DNA from: Chlamydiota bacterium
GTDB taxonomy: Bacteria > Chlamydiota > Chlamydiia > Chlamydiales > FEN-1388
NCBI GenBank assembly: GCA_013287775.1
Contig: JABDDE010000001.1
Coordinates: 7,245-71,244 of the forward strand
DNA: 64,000 nt
Reading direction: 5' to 3'
In this document: piece by piece, positions 530-62,126 of the stretch
How positions within the stretch are numbered: the first letter of the stretch is position 1
Layout of the letters: the number at the start of each line of letters is the position of its first letter
Translations under genes and position numbers: made by a program
Notes under the pieces: model-generated
What the model was told of the DNA's origin: nothing
Databases searched by the model: none
The model's input: only the letters and a program-made list of their open reading frames with translations

Positions 530-560
530 CGAAACTGTTATAATCCTGTTTCTTGATTAA

Positions 561-599
561 CATGATGTGCCATTCTCCAAAGGAGAATGGCACATCATG
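561..599 (-). terminator. PE-1-variant perfect hairpin abutting the Rieske gene stop; probable terminator
   Basis: catgatgtgccattctcc aaa ggagaatggcacatcatg forms an 18-bp perfect stem and ends 1 nt before the stop at 600-602. The arms resemble the PE-1 copy at 45775-45813. Confidence 0.6.
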
Positions 600-905
600 T
601 TAATCAATGATCAAGAAGGGCTGCTCCCCTTCCATTTCAATAGGGTAGCTTTGCACGCCTTCATTCCACAAATTTTGATTCTGCCCCGTGGTGATATCGA
701 ACTGCCAGCCATGCCACGGGCATGTGACAGTAGTGTCATCAAGGCTGCCTTCCCCAAGAGGGCCGCCTTCATGGGGGCAGATGTTGTCAATAGCATAAAG
801 CGTGCCTTTGTAGGTAAACACTGCCACCTCACGCCCATCTTCTAAAAGAAGCCACGTGCCTTTTCCTTCATCTGGAATTTTATTTTTTGGTATTGGAATT
901 CTCAT
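600..905 (-). CDS. Rieske [2Fe-2S] domain protein (NirD / small Rieske ferredoxin-like)
   Basis: 101 aa with both Rieske boxes, CPHEGGPL and CPWHGWQF; ATG start. Confidence 0.85.
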   Translation of the reverse strand: MRIPIPKNKIPDEGKGTWLLLEDGREVAVFTYKGTLYAIDNICPHEGGPLGEGSLDDTTVTCPWHGWQFDITTGQNQNLWNEGVQSYPIEMEGEQPFLIID

Positions 906-2967: not shown

Positions 2968-5250
2968 ATGCACACTTTTGAAAGAAATTTAGGCTACTTT
3001 CAGAAGCTGAATCCGCGTGCAGCGGCGCTTCTTTCGTGTGCAAACACAGAACATCTGCAATTTTGCCACACACAAAAAGGTGAGCTGAATCTCGTCGATA
3101 CTCGAATACATCGCACATACCACGACCCAAAAGGGGCTTTGGATGAGGCTATAAAGACTGCCCAAGCTTTTAAGCTTCCCCACCACTATCTGTGCATATA
3201 TGGCGTGGGGCTGGGGTTTCTCTATCAAGCGCTCTCACAGTGGCTGCATGAAGATGAGAGACGTCTTCTTATTATCTTGGAAGATGATTTAGCCGTTATT
3301 TCGCGATTTTTGGAAACCAAAGCAGCGAGTGAGCTACTACTAGACAAGCAGGTATTTCTATACTATTTTGAACATGGCGAGCATTCTGAGTATATTGCGC
3401 AGAGTATTGCGTGGATCACATTTTCAGAGCCTTTAGTTTTCTATGCATCTCCTGTCTATCGTGAAAGGCAGGCATTTGAGGAGATAGAAAAAGTACTGCT
3501 GAATGAGCAAGCAATCGTATATATGATTCTGGGGGAATATGAGATGCTTGGCTGCCCCTTTTTTTGTAATTTTTGGCAAAACCTGCGCCATTTACCGCAT
3601 TCCTATAATGCTGCAGACCTTTTTAGAGCCTTTAAAGGCATTCCTGCGTATGTTATGGGAGCGGGGCCATCACTCACAAAGCAGCTCCCTCTTCTTCGCA
3701 CTCTCTCAGATCGCGCCCTTCTTATTGCTGGTGGTTCTGCTATGAATATTGCCTGTGAGGCAGGTTTGCAGCCTCATTTTGGTGGCGGGGTTGATCCTAA
3801 CCCAACACAGTATTTAAGACTGCGGCAGAGTTTAGCAGTGGAGATGCCGTTTTTTTATAAGCTCAGAGTGTGCTCACGCGTTCCAGATATGGTTATGGGA
3901 ACAAAATTCTACCTTAAAGGTGATGATGCGTATGGGCCTGGGACATGGTTTGATAAAACGCTCCGTATTCGGGGCAAAGAATTTGAAGGCGGCTACAGCA
4001 TAGCCAACACAAGTATTGCCCTCGCCCATGCTCTTGGATGCAATCCTATTATCTTGGTTGGCTTTGATCTTGCCCTGACTGAAGATCGTCACTATGCTAA
4101 AGGGGTAGAGCATGATGAAGAGGAGCCTACCATAGTTGCGTGGAAAGATTATCAAGGCAAGCCCACAAAGACACTGTGGAAGTGGGTGATGGAAGCTGAA
4201 TGGATTTCAGACTTTTGTGAAAAGCACCCCTCAGTGCAGTGTATCAATGCCACAGAAGGTGGGCTCTGGATTCCCAATGTCACCCATATGCCACTCCAGG
4301 ATGCTGCCAAAAAGTGGTGCAAAAAGGAATATGACATGCAAGGGCTTGTGCATATGGCTATACAAAACGCATCCCCACTCAAATGTACACATAAGGCAAT
4401 TCAGCGTCATATGGGGCGCATTGTAGATAGCCTAAAAAAAGCGCAGGAGCTACTAGAACACGTTCTACAAGATAGCAGCAAAGTAAAACTACACGATCCT
4501 TTTGATAATCCTGATATTGCGGCTCTCTTTTATCAGCTTCAAGGAGAGCCTGCGTTTTTGGCAGTGCTTCAAGAGTTTTACAAAAAAGAGATGAAAAGGA
4601 TACAAGTGAGATGTGAGTGGTTGCAGCATCCTGGAGTTACAGATTTTGAGAGGAACAAAGCCATTTACAACATGCGCTGCGAGTGTTTTGAGTGTTTATT
4701 GCAAGTGACAAAAATGAATATCTCCATTATTGCAGAAATTCTTATGTCATGTACGAGTTTTCCTGCGGAAAACTCGCACATGACAAAAAATAGCAGCTCA
4801 GGCGATGTGGTAGCGAAACGTGGGGTTGTGTGTCAATATTTCGATGATGGGAAGCTTGCGAGCCAAACAGAATATGCGGAGGGGCGCCGTGAGGGAGAAG
4901 CGTTTTTTTATTCACGAGAGGGAATATGCGTGCGTAAGGCGACATATACACATGGGGTGTTAGATGGCAAGCAGTACTATTACTATCCAGACGGCGTTCT
5001 CAGGGCTGTTGTGGACTATAAAAATGGAGAGCTCGATGGCGAGTACCGTCATTACTATCCTAATGGGAAGATAATGCGCCAAATTTCGTGTCAGGCTGGC
5101 AAGCGTCATGGGCTTGATACGCTATGGGAGCAAGATGGACAAAAGCAAGGTAAAGAGCGGTTTATATTCCGTTATGAGCATGGTGTCTTAACAGAGGAGC
5201 TGCTTGCTGACCGCATTGCAGATGAGTATGATGTTCTTAATATTCTATGA
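2968..5250 (+). CDS. DUF115 (Maf/MptE-like) domain protein fused to C-terminal MORN/YwqK-type repeats
   Basis: VMGAGPSL..LIAGGSAMN..GGGVDPNP is the DUF115 core. The C-terminus has repeated YxxGxLxGxxxxYYPNG units (DGKQYYYYPDGVL, DGEYRHYYPNGKI). A PE-1 hairpin is translated in frame at 4745-4785. Confidence 0.7.
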   Translation: MHTFERNLGYFQKLNPRAAALLSCANTEHLQFCHTQKGELNLVDTRIHRTYHDPKGALDEAIKTAQAFKLPHHYLCIYGVGLGFLYQALSQWLHEDERRLLIILEDDLAVISRFLETKAASELLLDKQVFLYYFEHGEHSEYIAQSIAWITFSEPLVFYASPVYRERQAFEEIEKVLLNEQAIVYMILGEYEMLGCPFFCNFWQNLRHLPHSYNAADLFRAFKGIPAYVMGAGPSLTKQLPLLRTLSDRALLIAGGSAMNIACEAGLQPHFGGGVDPNPTQYLRLRQSLAVEMPFFYKLRVCSRVPDMVMGTKFYLKGDDAYGPGTWFDKTLRIRGKEFEGGYSIANTSIALAHALGCNPIILVGFDLALTEDRHYAKGVEHDEEEPTIVAWKDYQGKPTKTLWKWVMEAEWISDFCEKHPSVQCINATEGGLWIPNVTHMPLQDAAKKWCKKEYDMQGLVHMAIQNASPLKCTHKAIQRHMGRIVDSLKKAQELLEHVLQDSSKVKLHDPFDNPDIAALFYQLQGEPAFLAVLQEFYKKEMKRIQVRCEWLQHPGVTDFERNKAIYNMRCECFECLLQVTKMNISIIAEILMSCTSFPAENSHMTKNSSSGDVVAKRGVVCQYFDDGKLASQTEYAEGRREGEAFFYSREGICVRKATYTHGVLDGKQYYYYPDGVLRAVVDYKNGELDGEYRHYYPNGKIMRQISCQAGKRHGLDTLWEQDGQKQGKERFIFRYEHGVLTEELLADRIADEYDVLNIL
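4745..4785. repeat. PE-1 hairpin element inside a CDS (in frame)
   Basis: tgtcatgtacgagttttcc tgc ggaaaactcgcacatgaca; it reads MSCTSFPAENSHMT in the frame of ORF 2968-5250. Confidence 0.9.
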
Positions 5251-5641
5251 TGACACCTGTGGTATGTGTCAAAAAAGCTGTATTTTTTTTCTCAAGCGCG
5301 ATCAAAAAAGGCGTTTTTTCTTTGCACCACTTGGGGGCACAACTGCAAAGCATGAGCTGAAAGAGTGGCTTACAACACATTCTGGGGTAGATAGCATTGT
5401 ATTTGTAGAAAAGCAGGCTGTAACTCAATCTGTTTATTATTACAGCCGTGCTATCTTTCGAATGCTATGGCAACTAGGAGGTCTCTGGAGTGTTGTAGGG
5501 CTTCTTTCGTTTCTTCCTTCATGGCTTTTGTACCCTGCAGATGTGGTGTATCGCTTTATTGCACGCCATCGACGCAGCGTGTGTCTTTTGCCAAAAGAGA
5601 CTGCGTTTCAGCAAGAGCATAAGGAGCAGTTTTTGCCATAG
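5222..5641 (+). CDS. DCC-family thiol-disulfide oxidoreductase (DUF393)
   Basis: N-terminal FYDDTCGMC motif with ~130 aa and C-terminal hydrophobic segments. ATG at 5222; the track start at 5204 is TTG and lies inside the upstream gene. Confidence 0.75.
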   Translation: MSMMFLIFYDDTCGMCQKSCIFFLKRDQKRRFFFAPLGGTTAKHELKEWLTTHSGVDSIVFVEKQAVTQSVYYYSRAIFRMLWQLGGLWSVVGLLSFLPSWLLYPADVVYRFIARHRRSVCLLPKETAFQQEHKEQFLP

Positions 5642-6898: not shown

Positions 6899-6948
6899 AT
6901 AGCACACTCCTTCCGCTAGTATAATCTAGATCAAGTTGGGAATCTTAG

Positions 6949-6989
6949 GAACATAGATACCTTATGCTATGCATAAGGTATCTATGTTC
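6949..6989. promoter_or_regulatory. 41-bp perfect palindrome in the MFS/rpsD divergent intergenic region
   Basis: gaacatagataccttatgc tat gcataaggtatctatgttc; a consensus TATAAT sits at 6920-6925 on the + strand. Confidence 0.4.
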
Positions 6990-7181
6990 GTAAGAAACCA
7001 GGTAAGGGTTGGTTTATAAAAACCTCTCAGCCCAAAAGGGCACCCCTGGCGCAAAACATGTCCTCAGTATAACAACTTTTGTGGAAAGCAGCAAGCAGCG
7101 TTTAGGAAAATGGCACACAGACGTAATTCCCTCTTGCAAAAAACTCTCGATATGTGAGATATTGGTAGTAATTTTAATTAA

Positions 7182-7223
7182 ACGTCGTGTGCTATTTTCC
7201 GCCAGGAAAATAGCATATGACGT
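7182..7223. repeat. PE-1 hairpin element
   Basis: acgtcgtgtgctattttcc gcca ggaaaatagcatatgacgt, 20 nt upstream of the rpsD ATG. Confidence 0.85.
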
Positions 7224-7243
7224 CTGAAATTTAAGGAGACACA

Positions 7244-12540: not shown

Positions 12541-13725
12541 CCATTTGAATACGGAATTATTGATTGTTCCCCTGGTCTTCAATGTCGCTTCGCGGCATGA
12601 AGACCGGGGTATTGAATACGGAATTATTGATTGTTCCCCCAGTCTTCAATGCCGCTTCGCGGCATGAAGACTGGGGTAGTTAATCGGAATTTATTGATTG
12701 TTCCCCAGGTTTCAGATGTCGCTTACGCGAACACTGAAACCTGGGTAGTCGGGCACGGGCTCGGGCACGGGCACGGGCACGGAAATTCGGAATAATTAAT
12801 AAACCCGTTGGCCGAGCGGACGCTCACGCGCCGCTCGGCCCGGAATCAGAATAATTGATTGTTCCCTCGTTCTTCATGCCGCTCTGCGGTATGAAGAACG
12901 AGGGCATAGGTTTCGCTGCTACCGCAGCTCTATTGTATTTCATGCACCTGTAACCCCACGTTACCGCCGACCGTAGCGCGAGGCGCTACGGCCGCGCTCC
13001 ACGCGGGGCTAATGAATTCCACCGCTGCCGCGGTGGGGTCCATATCAGCTAGAAGTATGATATGTTATGCGTTTACCCTATCAACTACCCCGCCCTTCAT
13101 GCCGTGTAACGGCATAAAGGGCGGGGAATAATCAACTATTCCGATTCCGGGCCGAGCGGCGCGAAGCGTCCGCGAAGGCAACCGGAATAATCAACTATTC
13201 CGATTCCGGGCCGAGTGGCGCGTTAGCGTCCGCTCGGCCAACGGATTCATCAACTATTCCGAATTTCCGTGCCCGAGCCCGTGCCCGTGCCCGTGCCCGA
13301 ATCACCCCAGTCGAAGCGCTCGCGAAGCGGCTGCGAGACTGGGGGAACAATCAATAAATTCCGATCAACTACCCCAGTCTTCATGCCGCGAAGCGGCATT
13401 GAAGACTAGGGGAACAATCAATAAATTCCGATCAACTACCCCAGTCTTCATACCGCGGAGCGGCATGAAGACTAGGGGGAACAATCAATAATTCCGATTA
13501 CGGGCCGAGCGGCGCGTTAGCGTCCGCGAAGGCCAACGGAACAATCAATTATTCCGAATTTCCGTGCCCGAGCCCGTGCCCGTGCCCGACTACCCAGGTT
13601 TCAGTGTTCGCGTAAGCGACATCTGAAACCTGGGGAACAATCAATAAATTCCGTATTCAATACCCCGGTCTTCATGCCGCGAAGCGACATTGAAGACCAG
13701 GGGAACAATCAATAAATTCCGATAA
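12541..13725. repeat. BIME-like mosaic cluster of ~17 hairpin modules with overall inverted symmetry
   Basis: There are six forward modules (12551-12905) and ~11 reverse modules (13081-13725). Each is a conserved linker cggaat(t/a)attgattgttcccc plus a ~38-bp hairpin (types ccccggtcttcatgccgcgaagcg.., cccaggtttcagtgttcgcgtaagcg.., ggccgagcggcgcg..). (GGGCAC)n tracts are interspersed. No ORF >=60 aa is present. Confidence 0.9.
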
Positions 13726-19114: not shown

Positions 19115-19164
19115 GATGTTTTCGATTCTACGAGAACAAGGGGATTATTTGCAATAGTAATAAT

Positions 19165-19204
19165 GTCATGTGCAAATTTTCCTGACGGAAAATTTGCACA
19201 TGAC
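19165..19204. repeat. PE-1 hairpin element (consensus-like, perfect)
   Basis: gtcatgtgcaaattttcc tgac ggaaaatttgcacatgac followed by gaaaat. Confidence 0.95.
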
Positions 19205-19209
19205 GAAAA

Positions 19210-20960: not shown

Positions 20961-21602
20961 ATGACAAGCGTTGTCCAAGGACAAGGTCCTATACCAGAGC
21001 CAAATAGCTCAATGTCTGTACAAGATATAAAGATACAACTACAAAGTCTTGAAGCCCGAATAGAGCAGAACAATATTGGTGATTTGATAGCAACTGGAAC
21101 TTTTTGTCGTGGATCAACGACTGCTGGCAATGATATTTGGCTCAATTTTACTCTAATCGAGCAGATAATCGATAGGTTGAATACACTTTCTGTGGCACAG
21201 CCAGCAAATGCGGCAACTATACAATCCCTAAGAGAACAACTCAATAGAGTCGCTTGTCGTCTTATAGACGTTAATGATGAGCTGAGAAGGCCTACAGATA
21301 GGCCGTTTAACGATCCTACAGACCCTCAGGCTATGGTTGAACTGAGATCTGGAGATACGTACGAAGAGTATCTACGCAGGATGGAAAATCGAGGAACATG
21401 GGGTGGACAAACTGAAACTATAGCAGCAGTACAAGCGTTTAATCGCAATGCACGTGTGTATAATGTTTCCAATATAGAACAAGCAGGCGGACGACAGACA
21501 GTGGGCGTGATAACCTATAACACCTTGGCATCATCGTCAGCAGCGCCTCTGCGTCTTATTTATCGCCCAGGACATTATGACGCAGGGATAGTGGCACAAT
21601 AA
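20961..21602 (+). CDS. OTU-like cysteine protease (putative deubiquitinase effector)
   Basis: The C-terminal half YEEYLRRMENRGTWGGQTETIAAVQAFNRNARVYNV..PLRLIYRPGHYD fits the OTU WGG..E and HYD boxes. The Cys box is not clear (candidates C49, C98). AGGAGG RBS. Confidence 0.5.
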   Translation: MTSVVQGQGPIPEPNSSMSVQDIKIQLQSLEARIEQNNIGDLIATGTFCRGSTTAGNDIWLNFTLIEQIIDRLNTLSVAQPANAATIQSLREQLNRVACRLIDVNDELRRPTDRPFNDPTDPQAMVELRSGDTYEEYLRRMENRGTWGGQTETIAAVQAFNRNARVYNVSNIEQAGGRQTVGVITYNTLASSSAAPLRLIYRPGHYDAGIVAQ

Positions 21603-22155: not shown

Positions 22156-22525
22156 AATATTTTTCCCATATTTTATTGGTTTCTAAAAAAGTAACTCGTA
22201 CGTATGGCCCTTAGGGATTGTTAAGAAACAACTCATACATTTGAGAGGGGGTTGTAGCGAATTATCTTCTGTGCCTCCTAGCTTGAAGATATTGCTTTGT
22301 AATATCTCCCGCGCAAGGTCTGCTTGAGAATGTAATTTACTCTAACGCCCTCTGGAAAGTACGATTTATTCCTTAACGACCCTTACCACATGGGGCAAGG
22401 ATCGTACGCATTTAATCAATTATTATATACCAAGAAAGAATTTATTGGCAATCCATATTTTTTTGATTTTTTTTGAAGCCAAAAATCATGCATTCGTTCA
22501 TAGTGCAGAAAAGGGAGTACAAATA

Positions 22526-24496
22526 ATGAAACATCTCTATAATATAATACTTTTTTCCATATCGTTACTTGTTTGTCAAACAGTTGCGGCTAAGCCTGCA
22601 GAGCTTTCACAGCAAAATGTAACGGATAAAATGCATGAAATTATGAGGGCGCATGTGCTCTACAAGCATTTTTCACCGCTTCTTGCAAAGCGCTCTATTA
22701 GTAACTTTATCGAGGCGCTCGATCCTACAAAGACCTATTTTCTCTTTAGTGAGATAGAAAGGTGGTTAGATCTCGATGAAGATGGTCTTAAACAAGTTGT
22801 GGAGGATTTTGAGCAATCTGAGTTTCCTCTTTTTACAGCTATTTTTGAGCAAATGGATCAAGCGCTTAAAAGACGTGATCTATTCGAAGAGAGGTTGAAA
22901 GGCGTGGCTCTGCCAAAAAACGTCACTCCCAAGGAATTTAAAGACATGAGTTGGTGTGCCAATGAAGCAGAGCTGTATAATCGGTTAAAACGCCTTCGAG
23001 CGCTACAGCTGGAGGCTGCGGGAAACATTGGCGATGATGCCACTTTGAGAGCCAAACAGCGACTTGCAAAAAAACGTAAAATCATGGAAGAAGAGTTTCA
23101 AAATACCGATCCTGTCCTTCGACAAGAAACTATCTGTACACATATTATGAAGGCACTTGCTTCTTCTCTAGACCCTCATACAATGTACTTTACTCCAGAT
23201 GAAGCGTCGCAGTTTTTGTTTTTAATACAGCAGCGCCTTGTGGGCATTGGTGTGCAGCTACGAGATGATGTAGATGGCTTTACCATTGTCAAGATGGTAG
23301 AAGGCGGGCCTGCAGAAGTGTCTAAGGAAATAAAGGTGAAGGACAAGATTATTGGGATCAACGGTGAGCCTGTGATCGGCCTTGATGATGCTGAGGTAAT
23401 CGATATGATCCGAGGCCCCTCTGGAACGCAAGTTGCTCTACGCGTTATTCGTGAAATAGGCCATGATGGGGCAAAAATGCAGCAGGTAAAGGAGATTCAT
23501 CTTACAAGAGGCGATGTTATTGTGAAAGAAGCTCGTCTCGAAACGGCTATCGAGCCATTTGGCGAGGGTGTTATTGCGCACCTGCACCTGCATTCTTTTT
23601 ACCAAGATGAAGATAGCTCTTCAACAACTGATATCATAAAGGCCCTGGGCGAGATACGCAAAAACTACAAAGTAGTTGGGGTTATGCTAGACCTTAGAAA
23701 TAACTCTGGAGGCATTTTAACGGAAGCGGTTAATATTGTTGGTCTTTTTATAAAAAAAGGCGTTGTTGTTTCTATTAAGGATGAACAAGGCAGCGTACAT
23801 CATATGAGAGATTTAGATTCAGAGCAAATATGGGATGGGCCTGTAGCTGTTTTGGTAAATCGTTTGAGCGCGTCGGCGGCTGAAATTGTGGCGCAGGCCC
23901 TGCAAGATTATGGGAGAGCGCTTATTATAGGGGACGATCACACCTATGGGAAGGGCACTTTTCAGACATTTACGCTGACAGGGGCGACTATTAATCCTGA
24001 AGGCGAGTATAAAGTGACGCGTGGCTGTTACTATACGGTGTCTGGCAAGACGCCGCAGCTTGTTGGTACCAGAGCAGATATTATGATTCCAAGTGGTCTT
24101 ATGGGGCTAGAAATTGGCGAAGAGTATGCAAAATATCCCATAGAAAATGACACCATAGCTCCGAGCTTTAATGATACCTTTAGCGACATTTCGTTCTTTC
24201 AGCGAGACAGGGTTCGAAGGCTCTATGGTAACAATGTACAAAAGCCTGACCCGCACATTCGGAGCTTTTTTGCCCTCCTTCGCAAAAATAGCAAAATACG
24301 ACAGGAAAATAACAAGGCATATCAACGCTTTTTGTTGGAGATGAAAAAGAGTGTGGATGAAATGGAGAGCGATACTTCCCTTGAGCATGCTCCCGATTTT
24401 CAGCTTCAAGAGGCGATGAATACGATGAAAGACTATATTATTGATGTTGTGTGCAATTTTCCTGCGGAAAATGTGCACACAACATCAATAAAATGA
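22526..24496 (+). CDS. tsp: Tail-specific (C-terminal processing) protease, S41 family, with PDZ domain
   Basis: Signal peptide MKHLYNIILFSISLLVCQTVAA, a PDZ domain (IVKMVEGGPAE..KDKIIGING), LDLRNNSGG and SASAAEI..GKGT. AAGGGAG RBS. The last 17 aa derive from a PE-1 copy. Confidence 0.9.
   Translation: MKHLYNIILFSISLLVCQTVAAKPAELSQQNVTDKMHEIMRAHVLYKHFSPLLAKRSISNFIEALDPTKTYFLFSEIERWLDLDEDGLKQVVEDFEQSEFPLFTAIFEQMDQALKRRDLFEERLKGVALPKNVTPKEFKDMSWCANEAELYNRLKRLRALQLEAAGNIGDDATLRAKQRLAKKRKIMEEEFQNTDPVLRQETICTHIMKALASSLDPHTMYFTPDEASQFLFLIQQRLVGIGVQLRDDVDGFTIVKMVEGGPAEVSKEIKVKDKIIGINGEPVIGLDDAEVIDMIRGPSGTQVALRVIREIGHDGAKMQQVKEIHLTRGDVIVKEARLETAIEPFGEGVIAHLHLHSFYQDEDSSSTTDIIKALGEIRKNYKVVGVMLDLRNNSGGILTEAVNIVGLFIKKGVVVSIKDEQGSVHHMRDLDSEQIWDGPVAVLVNRLSASAAEIVAQALQDYGRALIIGDDHTYGKGTFQTFTLTGATINPEGEYKVTRGCYYTVSGKTPQLVGTRADIMIPSGLMGLEIGEEYAKYPIENDTIAPSFNDTFSDISFFQRDRVRRLYGNNVQKPDPHIRSFFALLRKNSKIRQENNKAYQRFLLEMKKSVDEMESDTSLEHAPDFQLQEAMNTMKDYIIDVVCNFPAENVHTTSIK
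24443..24486. repeat. PE-1 hairpin element forming the 3' end of tsp
   Basis: gatgttgtgtgcaattttcc tgc ggaaaatgtgcacacaacatc; translated as DVVCNFPAENVHTTS. Confidence 0.85.
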
Positions 24497-24562
24497 TACT
24501 AGGAAACCAGAAATGCCTATGACCCAGTTTTTGCAGACACAGGCACTCCTCATTTTGTTTTG

Positions 24563-26197: not shown

Positions 26198-26310
26198 ATA
26201 TTTCCTCAGTATTGATTTATAATTTAAACATATCATATTATAATTTTCCTGAAAAGATTTATATTATATTTCAAAAACTGATGGTTTTTATGTTGTCGTG
26301 CATATATTTA

Positions 26311-26351
26311 ACGTCATGCACCATTTTCCGTAGGAAAATGGTGCATGACGT
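26311..26351. repeat. PE-1 hairpin element (perfect) abutting the stop of the HEAT-repeat gene
   Basis: acgtcatgcaccattttcc gta ggaaaatggtgcatgacgt; the stop codon is at 26352-26354. Confidence 0.95.
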
Positions 26352-28088
26352 CTACTGATACAAGCACTGCAAGATAGCCCCTGCAGCCCGTATTCGGATG
26401 ACAGGTGAGGGATCTCCCAGCACATCATAGAGAAATGGTAAGGAATTTTTTGAGCCTATAGCGCCCAGGCCGAGTAAAATCTGCTCTTTATGCTCGCGCT
26501 TCGTATGGGTGTGGGAAAATGCTTCTTGGAGCGCCTTAAGCGCTTCTCCATCTTGGAAGGCAACGCATAAGATGAACGCTGCCTGAAGACGGATGACATC
26601 CGACTGGTTTTGTAAAAGCTCGCTAAGTTGTGTGGCTACTTCAGTATTTTCATCAGCCTCTTGTATCAGAAGCATAGCTGCTGCAGCTGCAATGCCAAGG
26701 GTGTGTTCATGCAAAAACGTCGTGCATATGTCTTGAATGATGGAAGGATCACAAGTGGCAAGGACTTGATAGAGTTCGAGGCGGCAGTAGAGATCCTTCA
26801 TTTCTGGCAAGCGAGGCATGAGCGGGCTGTGAAGATCATCTGCGCGTGCAATATAGCGAAAGATGCCTTTCGTGCTCCATGTTATTCGATCCTTCACTGC
26901 GATAAGTGCCTCTTGGAGTATGGGTACGGCGGTATCAAGGTGTGTTCGTTGTTTTATAAGATGAAGAGATAAATTGATTGCCACCAAAGGATCTGTTGTA
27001 GCCTCCAGCCATTTTTTTGAAAGGTCAATGCCCCTTGCGCCTGTGTGCATAAGCGCCCCTGCGCTCAGGGCGCGGTATGCTGGATTTTCAGCCCCAAGCC
27101 ACCTCTCGAGCACTGCTGCGCCCTCGGTATTTCCCATAATGATATCAAGCCAGCAAGCAGTGATGGCAAGCACCCCATCCTCTGTATGCATAAGGGGCTG
27201 ATGTGTTATCCCATTCACACAGTTTGGTAAGCCACCTTGTGCTTGCAGCGCTGCTATTTGCACATCAATTGACGGGTCTTGTATGAGAGGGCCGAGTAAG
27301 TCTGAGCAGTCCCCCAGTTGCTGGATCCGGATACAATCTGCGGCAAGTTGCCTTTCTTCAGGGACTTTGCTCTGACACAGCTTCTCAAGGGACGATCTCT
27401 CTATTGTAGGCTGTATGTAGAGCTCAGCAAGTATTGCGGCCTGTCTTTCTGCATAGGAAGCCGTCATATCTCGAAGACGTGCACTGATAACATCCCTTCC
27501 TTTGAGCGAGCGCATTTTGCCAAGCGAAATGAGCGCCGCACATCGAACAGGAGGTGATCGATCATGCTGACTTGCTAGTATGAGCTTGGTTTCTAGTTTT
27601 TCATCGCGAAAAGCTACTGCAAGCTCGGCTGCCATACAGCGAAGTGCCACGTTTTGATCTTGTAAAAGCTCGCTCACCACCGAAACCCCCTTTGCATCGT
27701 GCGTGCGATGCGCAGCGTAGGCGGCTTCAAAGCGGATAAGAGGAGAGGGATGCTGAGCTGCCTTGCGTATTACTGCCCACGCTACCGCTTCGACAAGATG
27801 TTCTTCTTGATTATGATCATTTTGAGCTACTTCGGGATGGTTTTTTCTAAAATCTGCCCAAGTAGCGAGCATGGATTTTTCATCTTGCAAAGAGGCTAAG
27901 AGGAGGATTTTTTGGCGAAGAAGATCTGCACGTGCAGGGTCATTTTTCAGGGCCGTCTCCACCACTTCGAGCGCTCCATGAAAATCGCGCACAGTACTCA
28001 AAAGCTTTGCACGATGCAGCGCCGTGTCACTATTGGCCCACAGCTGACAGGAAACTAGGAGAAAAATTATGTAGAAGAGCCTTGTCAC
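26352..28088 (-). CDS. HEAT (PBS-lyase type) repeat protein with a signal peptide
   Basis: Signal peptide MTRLFYIIFLLVSCQLWANS. Repeated units of the D/N.....VR..AA.AL type. GTG start overlapping the HIT stop. Confidence 0.7.
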   Translation of the reverse strand: MTRLFYIIFLLVSCQLWANSDTALHRAKLLSTVRDFHGALEVVETALKNDPARADLLRQKILLLASLQDEKSMLATWADFRKNHPEVAQNDHNQEEHLVEAVAWAVIRKAAQHPSPLIRFEAAYAAHRTHDAKGVSVVSELLQDQNVALRCMAAELAVAFRDEKLETKLILASQHDRSPPVRCAALISLGKMRSLKGRDVISARLRDMTASYAERQAAILAELYIQPTIERSSLEKLCQSKVPEERQLAADCIRIQQLGDCSDLLGPLIQDPSIDVQIAALQAQGGLPNCVNGITHQPLMHTEDGVLAITACWLDIIMGNTEGAAVLERWLGAENPAYRALSAGALMHTGARGIDLSKKWLEATTDPLVAINLSLHLIKQRTHLDTAVPILQEALIAVKDRITWSTKGIFRYIARADDLHSPLMPRLPEMKDLYCRLELYQVLATCDPSIIQDICTTFLHEHTLGIAAAAAMLLIQEADENTEVATQLSELLQNQSDVIRLQAAFILCVAFQDGEALKALQEAFSHTHTKREHKEQILLGLGAIGSKNSLPFLYDVLGDPSPVIRIRAAGAILQCLYQ

Positions 28089-31493: not shown

Positions 31494-31549
31494 CCTATGA
31501 CGACCGCAAAATCCGGTGGATTTTGTGGTCGCCATAGGTTAAGGACAGA
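31483..31549. terminator. 67-bp near-perfect palindrome overlapping the stop codon at 31491-31493
   Basis: tctgtccttaacctatgacgaccgcaaaatcc ggt ggattttgtggtcgccataggttaaggacaga; 32-bp arms with 2 mismatches. Confidence 0.55.
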
Positions 31550-31560
31550 CAATTGATATC

Positions 31561-32370: not shown

Positions 32371-32426
32371 TGTATTCTTCCATGTTATGGGATGTGCTTG
32401 CACATCCCATAACATGGAAGAATACA
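32371..32426. promoter_or_regulatory. 56-bp perfect palindrome (26-bp stem, 4-nt loop) 50 nt upstream of the BON/DUF1207 gene
   Basis: tgtattcttccatgttatgggatgtg cttg cacatcccataacatggaagaataca; a T6 run lies at 32433-32438. Confidence 0.5.
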
Positions 32427-37000: not shown

Positions 37001-37283
37001 TATTAAAGCGATCGCGGATGGTGCCGCGCTCTGCTGCTTGTACGACCACTTTTGTGCGTGCCAGAAATGCCTCTTCTGATTTTTTGTCGTGCTGGATAAT
37101 AGCCAAATGCCACAGGCGCAGCGCAATAAGCAAAAGCAAAAAAAGCACTACATTCAGAAGACGGTTAGCCTTTACTGGAATGGATGCAAGGGATGGAGAG
37201 TGGTCTCGGCGTATATTTCTCACACCATTATGGTATTTTGTTTGTGAAAAAAACGCAACATACGTGTATAATGGAGACGTCAT
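34035..37283 (-). CDS. Penicillin-binding protein 2 (transpeptidase), long chlamydial type
   Basis: N-terminal TM with SxxK (GSIFKLITGY), SxN (SSNPYF) and a KTG-like motif (GKTSTSE). The ~1080 aa length matches chlamydial PBP2. The start codon lies within a PE-1 arm. Confidence 0.85.
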   Translation of the reverse strand: MTSPLYTYVAFFSQTKYHNGVRNIRRDHSPSLASIPVKANRLLNVVLFLLLLIALRLWHLAIIQHDKKSEEAFLARTKVVVQAAERGTIRDRFNIVLATNTTDFRLGIIYASLREIPQVIFDKTSTGERRKVYLRKMYIRALAELIEREVGLDQERVVDLIYSYAAQNNNIPYILKNHLTEQEYYRLKMLEKDWPGLHVERIPKRSYPHGKALCHILGYLAPIQKEQYEKVLSDIHTTASAITVAELGLGLPAPFTTIEEAKKSLTELQERAYTINDHIGTLGVEASFENYLRGFYGKEEYFSDAKGNFVRSLQSQPPLSGKRLVLSISLQLQEYAEKLLAESEKVRKSAAKQEQEKTHERYKEPWIRGGSIVAIDPKNGQVVALASFPRFDPNDFIQANENVKRWIENEEYEAATWNQKIGLVQEEVGPDGSMQEKEELLEWDRFLEWILPPHCPIKTLLSENTSLEHIIALQSAFNEILKRAPTLSPEEVMSLLYEQGDEPYVGQFLQDVATYKAVLDRALQPLQNTKERLLLLDLSRLIIQAEEINTRGAAATELSRYSIREFRALSSTAVFISELLKKEAKKIFRLHTMKAWRSTHEKAFLQAKRVEEKRAGKYPRPYLEYIDKHEKEAFDAFWKKWKEALLTFACTKNSAAFGTEFVELEPYIERFAELHDKIKPLFPYAPELLHICKGYMDITHPLYGRYRGLGTDAKSLASSFMKSVSGHYLRSYAFRESSIQGSIFKLITGYTALKQLYLEKQGSVSPKDMQLFEISDHYYKMHGKTFVGNFSNGQPIPQLYKGGRIPKSLNLHLGTMNLLRAIETSSNPYFSLLAGDFLHDPTTLIQCAQDFGYGEKSGIQLPYEIKGNLPQDIATNKTGLYATAIGQHTLVNTPLQSSCMIAALANGGDLLRPQIALLAAGRTISEQPSSVNEVEEFSRHVRRSVFLPVEIQNTLFEGMRRCTSHAQEEYKRKRFIGAGCHFLPRVYKEFTAMQGLIGKTSTSEVVERIGLDVGDTPHMYRHIWYGGIAFPQNNGVFTFQDPELVVVVYLRYGGYGKDAAPIAAAIVNKWREIMSSHSRART

Positions 37284-37318
37284 ATGTCATTTTCCTAACG
37301 GAAAACGACATATGACGA
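37277..37318. repeat. PE-1 hairpin element containing the PBP2 start codon
   Basis: acgtcatatgtcattttcc taac ggaaaacgacatatgacg followed by aaaatag. Confidence 0.85.
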
Positions 37319-37883: not shown

Positions 37884-37911
37884 AGTTCCAATTGGGCATG
37901 TTCTAATTTTC

Positions 37912-37950
37912 GTCATGTGTAATTTTCCGTTAGGAAAATTCACACATGAC
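37912..37950. repeat. PE-1 hairpin element (reverse orientation) abutting the stop of the BNR gene
   Basis: (attttc)gtcatgtgtaattttcc gtta ggaaaattcacacatgac. Confidence 0.9.
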
Positions 37951-39671
37951 TAGTCTTTATGCATCATGCGTGTGAGCAGTTCATGTACATGCTTTTTGTG
38001 AGCCTCTACGATGGTAACAAAGGGGGCTTGCCGCTTGTTCTTATCAAGGATGACGATGGCATGGTGCTCACGGTCAAACAGAAGCCTTTCTGGTTTTTTA
38101 AAGGGCCCATTAAATGATTTTGTGTAGATAGCATACAGCTTACTCTTCTGAGCCACTAAGAAAGGATAGTCGCCATCTACCATGTTGCCTTGCGTCGTTG
38201 TTGGTCCATGTTGAACTATATATGACTTTTTAGAAAGTCGCAGTTCTTTGACAAAGTTAAGGCCAGCTTTGGTGCTGCCTCCATTTTGTTTTTCAACCTC
38301 ATTATATACTGCAAGCCACGCATCGATCTTGGTTTTATTGATATGTGCCTTGTTATCGTTTCTGAGATCAAAGTACAAAACTCCTAGCTGTCCATCTTCA
38401 GTGATAGCAACGAATGGAGAAAATGCTTGAGGGTTTTTGGCATGTTTCGGTGTTCGGCTGATGCGTACGGGCTTAGACCATGTTTGGCCGCCATCTCGAG
38501 AGGAAGAGATCGCAATTTGGGGTAGCTTGTCATCGCGAAAGTGGCCTGTTTGCCATACGGCATACAGAAATCCATTTGCTGGATTTACGCAGAATGCAGG
38601 GATGATGTCTCCAGCTCTAATTAAGGCTCCAATGCCACCTGAAATATGGCCATGTTTGTACGTGTAGCCGCCCGTGAAGACTAAATTGCCATCGAGTGGA
38701 TGTACTACATGAGCATGTTTTTCCCACGTTTTTCCCTGATTTTTAGAGCGCACAAATGCTATATCGAATTTTGTATGCTGATAGGGGAATATATCGTTCG
38801 TATATTGCGCATCTGTCACACCAGGTTTGGCGAAGATGCGTACCATGAAGTTGAGCAGGTCCCCATTCATATGTGGTTTTTTGCCTTTCGGAAGGACAAC
38901 CACAATATTATTGACTGTTGAGTTGTCATTCAAAATGCCATTGCTGTGATTGTGTGCGATAAGGTCTGGAAATGGATCGTAGAGTACTTTATGGGGTGTC
39001 CACGTCTTACCACCATTTTTTGTACGGCTGATTTCTGTATGTGAGTGAAAAGAAATGGCTTGATCAAAGCGATCCCACACAGCATAGGCAAGGTCAGAAT
39101 AGTTGGGGTCGGCAGTAATTGAGGTCTTGTCGTCGAGTGCAAATAAACCTGTGGGCTCATTTAATGACTCCTGACTCGATGCAAGAAAATAGGGCTTACC
39201 CCAGTGCGCGCCACCATCTTTTGACACTGTAACAACGACGCCTTGTTGATTTTGGGTATTGCGCTCTGTTTTTGCATTGATGAAAATAGCAATGAGATAG
39301 ACACGGCTGCCGTCTTTTGAAAAGCTCAGCCATGTATCTGTGACCCTTTGCGAGATGCCGCCATTACATATCTGAAACGGTACTGTACTGTTTTTCCATG
39401 TTTTGCCGCCATCTTTAGAATAGGCAATGCCCGCCTCTAATGCACCAGCATTTGAAATTCTATCTTGTTGCCAGCAGGTAACGATATTATTTGTGTTTTT
39501 CGGATTGACCGCTATTGTCGGCTCTACAGCTGCACCAACATGAATGGTAGTTGTTGCATTATATACTTCTTGTTGTTTTAAGCAGTGGCGGCTATAGTGT
39601 GTTGCAAAGCCCTGAGACATCATTGTCAGGGCAGCTAATGCCCATGCTGCTAAAATGGAAAATTTTCTCAT
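37950..39671 (-). CDS. Secreted BNR/Asp-box repeat protein (sialidase/exo-alpha-sialidase-like beta-propeller)
   Basis: Signal peptide plus five SxDxGxTW boxes (SKDGGKTW, SKDGGAHW, TKNGGKTW, SKNQGKTW, SRDGGQTW). Confidence 0.75.
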   Translation of the reverse strand: MRKFSILAAWALAALTMMSQGFATHYSRHCLKQQEVYNATTTIHVGAAVEPTIAVNPKNTNNIVTCWQQDRISNAGALEAGIAYSKDGGKTWKNSTVPFQICNGGISQRVTDTWLSFSKDGSRVYLIAIFINAKTERNTQNQQGVVVTVSKDGGAHWGKPYFLASSQESLNEPTGLFALDDKTSITADPNYSDLAYAVWDRFDQAISFHSHTEISRTKNGGKTWTPHKVLYDPFPDLIAHNHSNGILNDNSTVNNIVVVLPKGKKPHMNGDLLNFMVRIFAKPGVTDAQYTNDIFPYQHTKFDIAFVRSKNQGKTWEKHAHVVHPLDGNLVFTGGYTYKHGHISGGIGALIRAGDIIPAFCVNPANGFLYAVWQTGHFRDDKLPQIAISSSRDGGQTWSKPVRISRTPKHAKNPQAFSPFVAITEDGQLGVLYFDLRNDNKAHINKTKIDAWLAVYNEVEKQNGGSTKAGLNFVKELRLSKKSYIVQHGPTTTQGNMVDGDYPFLVAQKSKLYAIYTKSFNGPFKKPERLLFDREHHAIVILDKNKRQAPFVTIVEAHKKHVHELLTRMMHKD

Positions 39672-44396: not shown

Positions 44397-44454
44397 GGGA
44401 GAGGATATGTTATTCTACTACCCCGAGCTTGCGAGGGGTAGTAGGATAACATGA
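44397..44454 (+). promoter_or_regulatory. 15-codon uORF plus an 18-bp hairpin overlapping the murA SD and start
   Basis: GGGAGAGGA, then ATG at 44407 and MLFYYPELARGSRIT, with TGA at 44452-44454 overlapping the murA ATG (44451). Arms 44407-44424 / 44435-44452 pair with one G-U. Confidence 0.5.
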
Positions 44455-45785
44455 CACTAATAATACGCGGAGGAACACCTCTGAGTGGCGAGGTGCAAGT
44501 AGCGGGAGCAAAAAATGCAACGACAAAGCTGTTGGTTGCATCACTTCTTTCTGACAAGCGATGCACCTTGTATAATGTCCCGAACATTGGGGATGTTGAA
44601 ATAACCGTTGCTTTATGCAAAGAAATGGGAGCAGAGGTTACTTGGGATAAAAAAGAAAAAACGCTCTCCATAATCACTCCAGAGCTCAAAACTTCCTATA
44701 TTTCCCAGCGGTTTTCTGGGGCTAATCGTATTCCTATTCTTATGATAGGAGCGCTTCTAGGGCGCACGGAAGAAGACATTATTGTCCCAACAGCTGGAGG
44801 CTGTAAGCTGGGGCCGCGTGCAATTGATTTTCATATTGATGCCCTACAAAAACTGGGCGCAACTATTGAACTTCGCGAGATGAAGAAAGAGGCGGCCTAT
44901 TTTGCCCATGCGCACAATGGCCTCAAAGGCGCTGTCATCAATTTGCCCTATCCTTCTGTCGGCGCCACTGAAAACAGCATTCTCGCTGCAGTTTCTGCCA
45001 AGGGGACAACTATTATTAAAAATGCCGCAGTAGAGCCTGAAATTGTCGACCTCATCCTCTTTTTGCAGAAACTCGGTGCCAATATCTCCATCGAGACAGA
45101 TCGGACGATTGTTATTCACGGGACGAAAAAATTTTATGAAGTAGAACATACAGTCATGCCAGATAGGAATGAGGCCGCCTCATTTGCGATGGCGGCCATC
45201 AGCACCAAAGGGCGTGTGTTTGTACGAGGCGCACAGCATCGAGACATGATGTGCTTTTTGAATAAAATTCGTGAACTCGGTGGCGGTTTTCATATTAAGC
45301 ACGACGGTATTGAATTCTTTTATGATGGCGCTCTTCAGGGGGGATGCCACTTAGAGACCGATGTGCATCCAGGTTTTTTAACCGACTGGCAACCACCCTT
45401 TGTCGTGCTTCTTACCCAGGCGTCAGGGGTGTCTGTCGTACATGAGACGGTTTACGAAAATCGCTTCGGCTATACTACCGCCCTCAAGGAAATGGGCGCA
45501 CAAATTGCGCTTTATAAACAATGCCTTGGTGGAAAAAATTGCAGATTTTCGACAAATGCACACTATCATAGCATTGCGATTAGCGGCCCCACACCACTTT
45601 CTGGAAAGACTATTTCAATTCCTGATTTGCGCGCGGGTTTTGCCTATGTTATGGCAGCGCTTATCTCACCCGAAGAGAGCACTCTTTCAGGTCTACATTT
45701 TATTGATCGTGGTTATGAAGATTTAACCACAAAACTAGAACAGCTCGGTGCAACCATTTGCCGAGCAAAAGAGAGTCATGTGTAA
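44451..45785 (+). CDS. murA: UDP-N-acetylglucosamine 1-carboxyvinyltransferase
   Basis: GGTPLSGEVQVAGAKNATTKLLVASLL. The active-site loop PTAGGCKLGPRAIDFH retains Cys. The last codons and stop lie in a PE-1 arm. Confidence 0.95.
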   Translation: MTLIIRGGTPLSGEVQVAGAKNATTKLLVASLLSDKRCTLYNVPNIGDVEITVALCKEMGAEVTWDKKEKTLSIITPELKTSYISQRFSGANRIPILMIGALLGRTEEDIIVPTAGGCKLGPRAIDFHIDALQKLGATIELREMKKEAAYFAHAHNGLKGAVINLPYPSVGATENSILAAVSAKGTTIIKNAAVEPEIVDLILFLQKLGANISIETDRTIVIHGTKKFYEVEHTVMPDRNEAASFAMAAISTKGRVFVRGAQHRDMMCFLNKIRELGGGFHIKHDGIEFFYDGALQGGCHLETDVHPGFLTDWQPPFVVLLTQASGVSVVHETVYENRFGYTTALKEMGAQIALYKQCLGGKNCRFSTNAHYHSIAISGPTPLSGKTISIPDLRAGFAYVMAALISPEESTLSGLHFIDRGYEDLTTKLEQLGATICRAKESHV

Positions 45786-45813
45786 TTCTCCTGGCGGCAG
45801 AATTACACATGAC
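45775..45813. repeat. PE-1 hairpin element containing the murA stop codon
   Basis: gtcatgtgtaattctcc tggc ggcagaattacacatgac followed by gaaaaaa. Confidence 0.85.
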
Positions 45814-45854: not shown

Positions 45855-45893
45855 GCCATGTGCGACTTTTCCTGACGGAAAAGTGCACATGGC
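45855..45893. repeat. PE-1 hairpin element
   Basis: gccatgtgcgacttttcc tgac ggaaaagtgcacatggc followed by gaaaatag. Confidence 0.9.
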
Positions 45894-45977
45894 GAAAATA
45901 GCGCACATAGTGCCAATACAATTAACGCGAGGCGCGACTTACGAGCTGTTCGAATTGTAAGGATTCATAGCCTTTTC

Positions 45978-59972: not shown

Positions 59973-61025
59973 ATGGGTTTTGTACCTTTTGTTTACGCTG
60001 CCATACGGGCGGCTGCAAAGCACTCAAAGAGGGTGTCGCTCAGGAGTATGCAAAACGAGTCGAGCAAGAACAAAATTTTCGAAGAAAGATTTGGCGAGAA
60101 GATCACGATGAAAACGGAGAGAGATATCCATATTGGGATGGAGGGCGCCCATACGAACACCAAGGATATTAGCGAAGAGAAAAAGCGAAGTCGAATAGCG
60201 GTTAAAAAGAAGCTCAAGCGGCTTCGAAAGGGGATACAAGAAAAACAGCAAAGTCTTGAAGAGGCTCAAAATTGGCAAGGCACTCAGCATCTTGCAGACC
60301 TTCTCAAAGCGCATTTCTACATGCTCCAAGAAGGTATGAGCTCAATTACGATTCCTGATTGGGAAAAAGAGGGAGCTTTAGTGGAAATTCCGCTTGAGCC
60401 TTTAGTGCCTCTTGACACACAGCTCAAAGCACTCTACACTACAGCAAAAAAACAAAAAAAAGCCATTCTGCCACTACAAAAGATTGTGCAGCATCTCCAT
60501 GATGAAGAGGGTAAGTGGGAAAAGGTACTCACCCAAATAGAGTCTACAGATACGCTTGAGGCACTCGAGTCTTTACAAAGGGAGCATCAGCTCGTACAAC
60601 AAAAACCAAACGCTTCAAAGGTGAGTCAAAAGCAGCCACTTGCCTACCATGTGTTTTATTCAGCCTCACATCACACTATCTATGTGGGAAAGAGTGCTGA
60701 GGGCAACGATTTTGTTACATTTAAGATGGGACATGGCGATGATCTGTGGCTGCATATCCATGGCACAGCAGGCTCTCATGTACTCATAAAAAAGCAAAAG
60801 AACATGCAAATCGATCCAGAAACTATTGCAGATGCGGCTCACTTAGCTATATATTTCAGTAAAGAGCGCTCGCAGTTGCAAAAAAAGCATGAGGTGATTC
60901 TGTGTGAAAGACGCGAGGTCTCGCGAATGAAAAAAATGCCTCCAGGGAAGGTGACAGTGCGTACTTCTAAGACGCTCTGCATTGTACTCGATCCGCAGCG
61001 TATTGAGGCTATTAAAGATCGTTAA
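59973..61025 (+). CDS. NFACT-R/DUF814 domain protein (RqcH/FbpA C-terminal-like)
   Basis: IYVGKSAEGNDFVTFKMGHGDDLWLHIHGTAGSHVLIK is the DUF814 core. The N-terminal part is coiled coil. The start is uncertain (59973, 60048 or 60108). Confidence 0.7.
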   Translation: MGFVPFVYAAIRAAAKHSKRVSLRSMQNESSKNKIFEERFGEKITMKTERDIHIGMEGAHTNTKDISEEKKRSRIAVKKKLKRLRKGIQEKQQSLEEAQNWQGTQHLADLLKAHFYMLQEGMSSITIPDWEKEGALVEIPLEPLVPLDTQLKALYTTAKKQKKAILPLQKIVQHLHDEEGKWEKVLTQIESTDTLEALESLQREHQLVQQKPNASKVSQKQPLAYHVFYSASHHTIYVGKSAEGNDFVTFKMGHGDDLWLHIHGTAGSHVLIKKQKNMQIDPETIADAAHLAIYFSKERSQLQKKHEVILCERREVSRMKKMPPGKVTVRTSKTLCIVLDPQRIEAIKDR

Positions 61026-61214: not shown

Positions 61215-61253
61215 GCCATATGCGACTTTTCCTTACGGAAAAGCGCACATGGC
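61215..61253. repeat. PE-1 hairpin element
   Basis: gccatatgcgacttttcc ttac ggaaaagcgcacatggc followed by ggaaata. Confidence 0.9.
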
Positions 61254-61270
61254 GGAAATATTTTCAGGAA

Positions 61271-61390: not shown

Positions 61391-61431
61391 TGTCATGTGC
61401 AATTTTTCGATAGAAAAATTCGCACATGACA
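61391..61431. repeat. PE-1 hairpin element 6 nt from the response-regulator stop
   Basis: tgtcatgtgcaatttttc gata gaaaaattcgcacatgaca. Confidence 0.9.
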
Positions 61432-61436
61432 CAGCA

Positions 61437-62126
61437 CTAGTCATCACGCTTGAATCGGTAGCCTACTCCTCGAACGGTTTCAATAAAGTCAAAATGTGGT
61501 CCAAGCTTTTTTCTGAGGGCTGCTATATGCACATCAATATTTCTATCCACGACAAAGGTATTATCGCCCTGAAGATCATCCAGGAGTTGGTTTCTGGTAA
61601 ACACTTTCCCAGGACAGATGGCGAGGCGGCGCAAAATGCCAAATTCTGAAAGAGTTAGGTTAATGGTCTTGTTTTTCTTCTTTACAATGTAGGTTTCTAA
61701 TTCTATGGAATATTCGCCAAACTCAATACGCTTTTCATCTGGTTCATCCTCATTATTACGTCTCAGGACTGCTTTTATACGAGACATGAGGACGCGTGGG
61801 GAAAAGGGTTTTGTCACGTAATCATCAGCACCAAGCTCAAGGCCTAACACCACGTCTGTCTCTTCGCTTTTTGCTGAAATCATAATAATAGGAATATGCT
61901 TTAATGCATCATTCGCTTTGACTTTGCGGCAGACATCGAGCCCATTTTGTCCGGGTATCATAAGATCTAAGATGAGAAGATCTGGCGGCTGTTTTTGAAG
62001 AGTTTCATAGCCATTTAATCCATCATACGCTACGGAAAATGCATAGCCAGCCATCTCTGCTTGTAATTTAATTAGGGCAGCAATGTCTTCTTCATCTTCT
62101 ATAAGCAATATTTTTTGTTTTTGCAT
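61437..62126 (-). CDS. OmpR/PhoB-family response regulator
   Basis: The receiver domain has the acidic pocket LLIEDEED, the phospho-Asp context DLLILDLMIPG, and SAKS and KPF. The wHTH region has TLSEFGILRRL..VRGVGYRF. Confidence 0.9.
   Translation of the reverse strand: MQKQKILLIEDEEDIAALIKLQAEMAGYAFSVAYDGLNGYETLQKQPPDLLILDLMIPGQNGLDVCRKVKANDALKHIPIIMISAKSEETDVVLGLELGADDYVTKPFSPRVLMSRIKAVLRRNNEDEPDEKRIEFGEYSIELETYIVKKKNKTINLTLSEFGILRRLAICPGKVFTRNQLLDDLQGDNTFVVDRNIDVHIAALRKKLGPHFDFIETVRGVGYRFKRDD

Follow-up and report, generated by a model that had tools for sequence, protein, structure and literature searches.

In a 64,000-nucleotide window of a Chlamydiota genome (lineage FEN-1388; contig JABDDE010000001.1 of assembly GCA_013287775.1, positions 7,245 to 71,244, with all coordinates below counted from the start of the window), an open reading frame (ORF) of 760 codons at 2968..5250 joins a DUF115 (MptE-like) domain to MORN repeats, and a palindromic hairpin is read in frame exactly at the seam between them. 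The hairpin, together with an A-rich tail, forms one copy (c1) of a repeat family with 12 copies in the window. Comparison with related loci places the fusion as derived in this lineage, and insertion of the repeat plausibly produced it. Palindromic repeats that are read in frame are known above all from Rickettsia, with further cases on record for several other bacteria; here an environmental chlamydial lineage has a dense palindromic family of its own, one copy of which, in a single case, lies where a fusion specific to this lineage joins two partner genes.

The hairpin within the DUF115-MORN gene

The hairpin occupies bases 4745-4785 (TGTCATGTACGAGTTTTCC-TGC-GGAAAACTCGCACATGACA) and consists of 19-nt arms with one A:C mismatch (18/19 paired) around a 3-nt loop; a repeat search of the window extended the arms to 22 nt at 91% complementarity. 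Its predicted RNA fold has a free energy of -25.4 kcal/mol (z = -8.4), which none of 200 shuffled sequences equaled, and dinucleotide shuffling gave an expectation of zero chance matches to either the whole hairpin sequence or its core. The host ORF is intact: codon 593 begins at 4744, and positions 4744-4785 make up the stop-free codons 593-606, encoding MSCTSFPAENSHMT. An earlier note on this DNA had described a 41-bp palindrome translated without stop or frameshift at about codons 593-606 of a 760-aa ORF, and both its coordinates and its peptide are confirmed. The parts of the gene to which the following sections refer are:

2968..5250, + strand: fused ORF, DUF115/MptE-like (Maf-type) domain plus MORN_2 repeats (Pfam, AlphaFold2 model, Logan assembly)
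2968..4743, + strand: DUF115 half, residues 1-592, orthologous by homology to stand-alone DUF115 proteins of ~600-640 aa
4744..4794, + strand: c1 in sense orientation, hairpin plus A-rich tail AAAAATAG(C), translated as MSCTSFPAENSHMTKNS; boundaries uncertain by 1-2 nt
4745..4763, + strand: left hairpin arm TGTCATGTACGAGTTTTCC
4767..4785, + strand: right hairpin arm GGAAAACTCGCACATGACA, which holds the in-frame ATG of M605
4785..4793, + strand: run of six A (A6) followed by TAG, the run being 1 nt longer than in the family consensus tail
4795..5250, + strand: MORN half, most similar to the stand-alone MORN genes at loci L002 and L013
4807..4809, + strand: in-frame GTG, a possible former MORN start that would have overlapped a hypothetical earlier stop (GTGGTAG)

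Of the three sense frames of c1, the ORF uses the single open one; the other two are closed by the TGA in CATGAC or by the TAG of the tail. Most copies of the family are open in this frame as well, in which they read M-S/P-C-x-x-F-P-x-G-K-x-H-M-T/A-K-I. The in-frame placement of c1, with a prior of ~1/3, is what purifying selection would leave and is unremarkable by itself.

The position of c1 between the two parts of the protein, also proposed in the earlier note, follows from where homology to DUF115-only relatives ends (about residue 592) and where the MORN repeats begin (about residue 614). Pfam placed the MptE-like (DUF115) domain at residues 201-372 and MORN_2 repeats further on, with the best stretch at 689-706, and gave a weak match to Maf_flag10_N, while NCBIfam returned a sub-threshold PseD-like match. 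An AlphaFold2 model built on an alignment of 79 sequences had a mean predicted local distance difference test score (pLDDT) of 90.5 and a predicted template modeling score (pTM) of 0.90. In this model the last DUF115 helix spans residues 559-597 and is followed by coil (598-613; pLDDT drops under 50 at 605-612) up to the beginning of the first MORN strand at 614. The residues supplied by the element (593-609) are thus predicted to cap the last DUF115 helix and to form a disordered interdomain linker, and the pTM suggests that the DUF115 and MORN halves pack together as partners. With an intact ORF, an open frame and a site that is structurally permissive in the model, c1 has the properties of an intragenic palindromic insert, and the hairpin probably has no role at the protein level beyond that of a tolerated linker.

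A dispersed and oriented palindrome family

The 12 copies in the window correspond to about one per 5 kb, each a unit of ~50 nt made up of a hairpin and the tail GAAAATAG. The family consensus is A-[T/C]GTCATGTGC-nnn-TTTTCC-TRAC-GGAAAA-nnn-GCACATGAC[G/A]-AAAATAG, and 11/12 copies align to nGTCATGTGCnAnTTTTCC-TGAC-GGAAAA-TTGCACATGAC-GAAAATA (alignment A2). Stems are 18-20 bp and loops 3-4 nt long, and the predicted folds of all copies range from -21 to -37 kcal/mol. As short imperfect palindromes in dispersed copies with a common consensus, they belong to the generic class of repeats resembling repetitive extragenic palindromes (REPs). A covariance model (R1) was built from the alignment of 11 window copies, which match it by construction, leaving out the divergent c12. 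These 11 copies score 60-70 bits on one strand and 20-30 bits less on the opposite strand, and c12 scores 47 bits; c1 itself scores 61.7 bits on the + strand (E = 5e-14) versus 42.1 bits on the - strand. This gap between strands, together with the asymmetric loop (T-R-A/G-C) and the A-rich 3' tail, indicates that the family is oriented. The remaining copies are located as follows:

about 547..613, - strand: c12, divergent; overlaps the stop of the Rieske gene (600..905, -)
7178..7227, - strand: c2, ~20 nt upstream of rpsD
19161..19208, + strand: c3, between divergently transcribed genes
24440..24498, + strand: c11, last ~17 codons of tsp
26305..26357, - strand: c4, directly adjoins the stop of a HEAT-repeat gene, 26352..28088(-)
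37278..37317, + strand: c5, just upstream of tRNA-Gly (37336)
37911..37950, - strand: c6, 1-nt overlap with the stop of a BNR-repeat gene, 37950..39671(-)
45774..45813, + strand: c7, from which the EPSP synthase gene (44451..45785) takes its last 3 codons and TAA stop
45855..45895, + strand: c8, 70 nt downstream of aroA, with the extended tail AAAATAGCGCACAT
61215..61255, + strand: c9, downstream of an NFACT-like gene (59973..61025)
61391..61431, - strand: c10, 5 nt past the stop of a response-regulator gene, 61437..62126(-)

Apart from c1, all copies (11/12) lie outside gene bodies, and six of the 12 (c4, c6, c7, c10, c11 and c12) are at most 5 nt away from the stop codon of a co-oriented gene or overlap it. 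Every copy at or downstream of a gene 3' end is co-oriented with that gene (9/9; two-sided sign test, ~0.004), while c2, c3 and c5 lie between divergently transcribed genes. Such a preference for stop codons, combined with co-orientation, suggests either a role at the RNA level or a strongly biased insertion mechanism. By analogy with what has been proposed for REPs, the sense-strand hairpins at sites other than c1 most likely provide structure at mRNA 3' ends.

The copy at tsp illustrates what insertion at a 3' end can do to a protein. The tsp ORF (22445..24496), with S41, PDZ and TSP_NTD domains, ends across c11 in ...DYIIDVVCNFPAENVHTTSIK and a stop; it reads FPAEN there, as the earlier note had observed in pointing to a peptide core common to this site and c1. 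Across 24 Tsp homologues the sequence is conserved up to ..MKDYII and then gives way to a tail of variable sequence, with KAA (or AAA) at its end in most cases. The window Tsp is without this native variable tail and has the element-encoded DVVCNFPAENVHTTSIK followed by a stop in its place, and nothing recognizable as a remnant of the native tail was found downstream of c11. This replacement indicates that the family inserts at gene 3' ends, displaces native tails and is translated; with Tsp, EPSP synthase and the Rieske protein as examples, it routinely rewrites protein C-termini. That a tail-specific protease should have a conserved alanine-rich C-terminus is itself curious.

Beyond the window, the covariance model gave no family hit in the ten orthologous loci searched; it superseded a regular-expression scan of 78 chlamydial loci, which had missed some copies and had returned nothing real. 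A pattern scan of Joint Genome Institute (JGI) metagenomes produced 33 matches, among which the only true copies were on contigs L110 (three) and L091 (one), the rest being chance matches or a conserved coding motif. Scanning the whole window at Rfam gathering thresholds returned three tRNAs only and no family matching the hairpins. From these searches, the family looks restricted to this lineage. Neither a Y1 transposase domain nor a REP-associated tyrosine transposase (RAYT) was found in the 10 small ORFs of the window, and no flanking direct repeats are visible in alignment A4, which contains 16 copies including those from metagenomes. A miniature inverted-repeat transposable element (70-300 bp, with terminal inverted repeats and a target-site duplication) was also considered and rejected, the unit being a single hairpin of ~50 nt.

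The metagenome contig L110 (JGI Ga0207126_1381, GC 45%), with copies at 2280-2412 and 859-919, is probably from this organism or from one closely related to it. Two of its copies are in tandem and have a longer tail in common, GAAAATAGCGCACATCGYGTTRCATGTAAT, the beginning of which also occurs at c8 in the window; the full unit of one subfamily may accordingly be ~70 nt long.

Several described repeat families resemble this one in part. Rickettsia palindromic elements (RPEs; Ogata et al. 2000, as summarized in PMC2229807 and PMC3733652) are dispersed palindromic repeats of an obligate intracellular bacterium, found in frame in protein genes whose ORFs remain intact, and the peptides that they encode are surface- or linker-like. 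The present family is similar in being dispersed and palindromic in an obligate intracellular bacterium, with an in-frame copy, a linker-like peptide and an intact ORF at c1. It differs in length (~50 nt, versus ~100-200 bp for the elements reviewed with RPEs in PMC2229807) and in that its copies lie mostly at stop codons, with c1 at a fusion seam instead of within one ancestral gene. Its host also belongs to another phylum, Chlamydiota. The comparison with RPEs made in the earlier note, and a similar one with intragenic REPs, is apt because the hairpin belongs to a dispersed repeat family.

In-frame copies have also been catalogued for two REP classes, GTAG and CGTC, in several phyla, including in Opitutus terrae of the PVC group; these REPs occur near ORF 3' ends, where they sometimes donate stop codons (PMC3733652, PMC2229807). 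CGTC REPs as described by Di Nocera et al. 2013 have an unpaired tag that is often TGTC, stems of 8-9 bp that start with AT, loops of 4-5 nt and a CCA tail; they lie within 20 bp of ORF 3' ends, are occasionally intragenic, no associated transposase was found for them, and they were not reported from Chlamydiae (PMC3733652). In the window, (C/T)GTC or (C/T)GCC directly precedes AT in 9/12 copies: c2, c4 and c5 have CGTCAT, c1, c3 and c10 TGTCAT, c8 and c9 TGCCAT/CGCCAT, and c6 and c7 AGTCAT. The family is thus similar to CGTC REPs in that most copies start with CGTC or TGTC followed by AT, in its dispersal, its short loop (3-4 nt, against 4-5 nt), its 3'-end location and its occasional intragenic copy; no transposase was found for it among the 10 small window ORFs. 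However, its CGTC is not an unpaired tag but pairs with the GACG at the end of the hairpin, its stem is 18-20 bp instead of 8-9, and its tail GAAAATAG instead of CCA.

Classical GTAG REPs, which are associated with RAYT transposases and form REPtrons, have been proposed to stabilize mRNA 3' ends. The family resembles them in consisting of short hairpins that lie at the 3' ends of genes and in some cases provide the stop codon, but it is without a conserved GTAG tag, no RAYT was seen among the 10 small window ORFs, and its copies mostly occur singly, not as head-to-head or tail-to-tail dimers. We infer from these comparisons of sequence and placement that it is a new REP-like family, outside those described, that would work like RPEs and intragenic REPs.

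Origin of the fusion

To compare the locus across relatives, 79 loci were mapped for both halves by tblastn. The best homologues (P0002-P0015; 39-44% identical) are DUF115-only proteins of ~600-640 aa that cover 78% of the query, up to the hairpin, and more distant homologues (29-36% identical) have both domains. Locus L002, the contig of the best match, has the order major facilitator superfamily (MFS) gene, DUF115 (624 aa), MORN (183 aa, with an ATGA overlap) and rpsD; the window has MFS, the fused gene, a DCC1-like gene, an MFS gene (-) and rpsD. With MFS directly upstream in 11/11 loci and rpsD directly after MORN in most, these loci are positional orthologues. Nine of the 11 are split (L002, L003, L004, L005, L007, L010, L013, L042 and L050), L006 is cut off by a contig end, and L011 (4989-6950), from a related metagenome-assembled genome, is an independent DUF115-MORN fusion that has no palindromic element, joins the halves by a short linker and lacks the leading MORN repeats. 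In the split loci the two genes overlap or sit a few bases apart, mostly with ATGA or GTGA stop/start overlaps.

A neighbor-joining tree of the DUF115 domain recovered the clade containing the window with 100% bootstrap, as did concatenation of DUF115 with rpsD, in which the window paired with the split locus L002 in 92% of replicates; the outgroup of the concatenated tree was L037 and L067, more distant DUF115-rpsD loci without MORN. For the window MORN half, the most similar sequences are the unfused MORN genes at L002 and L013 (~40% identity), and all three have a C-terminal GKRHGxDxxW. Since the window is nested among split loci, by parsimony the split state is ancestral and the fusion is derived in this lineage. 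The earlier, tentative proposal that two formerly separate genes were fused here is thereby supported. The window protein does not simply have 14 extra residues: its linker is close in length to those of distant fused paralogues, and c1 probably spans ~17 codons (hairpin plus tail).

The overlapping stops and starts of L002, L004, L005, L007, L013 and L050 suggest translational coupling, and this arrangement suggests that the DUF115 and MORN proteins form a complex, as does the occurrence of the pair as split genes in some lineages and as a fusion in others. Among Parachlamydiaceae-like paralogues, many have the two domains fused and others have them split, and the arrangement has therefore switched repeatedly.

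That insertion of the element produced the fusion is, on the balance of the genomic comparisons, the reading that we consider somewhat likelier to be right than wrong. In this scenario, c1 would have inserted at the former 3' end of a stand-alone DUF115 (Maf-like) gene, with a separate MORN gene overlapping it or a few bases downstream. The element would then have been read through in its one generally open sense frame, which continues into the MORN gene, giving a single 760-aa protein in which the element encodes a helix cap and a disordered interdomain linker. Two routes are conceivable: a direct one, in which the insertion itself joined both frames, and a two-step one, in which insertion at the 3' end was followed by a +1 slip from A5 to A6 that shifted the frame away from the TAG at 4811-4813 and into MORN.

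Three features of c1 favor fusion driven by the insertion. It lies at the stop/start junction of its relatives, beginning 9 residues past an invariant VN motif (the shortest relatives stop at +10 to +13); its orientation is that of the family at gene 3' ends; and none of the other window copies is internal to a gene. The two-step route further accords with the c1 tail, in which A6 precedes TAG where the consensus GAAAATAG is one base shorter. Deleting one A yields a 614-aa DUF115 protein ending in ..SHMTKIAAQAMW and a stop (..AQAMW-stop) at 4811-4813, overlapped by the GTG at 4807 as GTGGTAG, and this junction resembles those of the relatives and the W-stop end of L007. The sequence ATGACAAAAAAT was also considered as a retained start codon, likened to the MORN start ATGACAAAAAAA of L003, but this was rejected because it belongs to the element consensus.

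As in Rosetta-stone fusions, neighbors with an ATGA-type overlap in relatives form one ORF here. In contrast to such fusions, a repeat copy rather than a simple indel or deletion is present at the seam, L011 being an example of the simple route.

Several points weigh against an insertion-driven fusion. L011 is fused without an element, so none is needed for fusion, and distant fused paralogues have non-palindromic linkers of much the same length (~25 aa) as that of the window protein. Linkers are permissive, so that an intragenic copy could be found in one simply because it survives there. Removal of 51 nt (4744-4794) keeps the ORF in frame, in which case the fusion would predate the insertion, whereas excising 41 nt gives KK-stop and 49 nt gives ..AQAMW-stop, both restoring a stop; with element boundaries ambiguous by 1-2 nt, the excision test is not decisive. 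The next-best homologue is 44% identical, too divergent for a base-level comparison with an empty site, and the phylogeny consists of neighbor-joining trees of divergent sequences. In addition, no transposase or other sign of mobility was found for the family in a search of 10 small window ORFs, and its mRNA-stabilizing role is drawn from analogy.

Alternatively, the fusion may have come first, through a small deletion or frameshift as in L011, with the repeat landing later in a permissive linker as a passenger. This is the most serious competitor, though we regard it as rather unlikely. The 51-nt excision fits it well, matching a conserved left-hand A plus the tail AAAATAGC and leaving an in-frame ..AEIL-SSGDVV.., as do the element-free fusion of L011 and the disordered linker of the AlphaFold2 model, and intragenic REPs and RPEs elsewhere are usually neutral passengers (PMC3733652, PMC2229807). 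However, the other 11 window copies all lie outside gene bodies, six of them on stop codons, so that insertion at an old DUF115 stop suits the habit of the family better than internal insertion does, and a palindrome with 18/19 positions paired suggests a recent event.

The extra A could instead be a homopolymer artefact: were the true run at 4785-4790 A5, the genes would be separate, with a 614-aa DUF115 protein ending ..HMTKIAAQAMW-stop and MORN starting from the GTG at 4807. An A5 run would restore the consensus tail length and give a clade-typical DUF115 length, an L007-like W-stop end and a start/stop overlap like that of relatives. Nevertheless, the 89-kb NCBI/JGI contig and the Logan assembly of run SRR8434706 encode the identical 760-aa protein, and A6 is short for an Illumina-type error, which makes an artefact improbable.

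A regulatory function, in which the hairpin acts as an intragenic signal (attenuator or terminator, RNase site, or frameshift stimulator) giving DUF115 alone as well as the fusion, is more doubtful still. The hairpin is stable (-25.4 kcal/mol), and a slippery heptamer, A_AAA_AAT, lies in the zero frame at 4785-4791 with TAG at 4791-4793 in the -1 frame. This recalls the slippery-heptamer layout for -1 frameshifting in dnaX, in that an A_AAA_AAN heptamer in the zero frame meets a stop immediately in the -1 frame, but at c1 there is no downstream stimulatory structure: the hairpin precedes the slippery site, which is the wrong side, and the RNA downstream of the site is no more stably folded than shuffled sequences (z = +1.5 and -0.5). 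No T-run follows the hairpin, the sense strand having an A-run instead, and a terminator scan of 4400-5400 found no terminator-like sites or promoters around it, which indicates that it is not an intrinsic terminator. Intergenic copies have the same tail, so the tail was not built for the DUF115-MORN gene. A bolder combination, in which a REP-like repeat, with or without a later +1 slip in its A-run, created the two-domain protein at the DUF115 stop and its A_AAA_AAT-TAG tail may still yield both DUF115-only and fused forms, seems equally far-fetched; if true, it would make a REP-like repeat a direct agent of both domain fusion and dual-product coding in Chlamydiae. A chance palindrome outside any repeat family can be discounted given the covariance-model E-value, the zero shuffle matches, and the consensus arms, loop type, orientation and tail that c1 has in common with the other window copies.

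Should the causal link between insertion and fusion be real, it would represent a simple route by which selfish hairpin repeats make multidomain proteins from adjacent genes in overlapping frames. For those annotating chlamydial genomes, repeat-encoded C-terminal tails and linkers are to be expected.

Neighboring genes and other palindromes

Between the fused gene and rpsD, the segment 5204-6907 holds the gene for a DCC1-like thiol-disulfide oxidoreductase and a second MFS transporter gene (-). Since rpsD directly follows MORN in relatives, this segment represents a local insertion or rearrangement adjoining the fusion. Elsewhere in the window, ORFs at 19512-20882 (Schlafen/AlbA_2 plus HATPase_c_4), 40137-40613 (PD-(D/E)XK nuclease), 50195-50584 (a RhuM fragment next to tRNA-Met) and 20961-21602 (OTU-like protease) could be defense-related, mobile or effector-like.

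The window also contains other long near-perfect palindromes that are unrelated in sequence to the family, with 25-37-nt arms and 1-3-nt loops (31480-31552, 32371-32426, 37589-37652, 52514-52589, 59148-59207, 6943-6995 and 33640-33700). A repeat search counted 44 inverted repeats in the 64 kb, and the genome seems unusually hairpin-rich. Two further hairpins, at 12864-12904 and 13088-13126 (CCCTCGTTCTTCATGCCGC; CCCCGCCCTTCATGCCGT), have the arm motif CTTCATGCCG in common and may represent a second small palindrome family.

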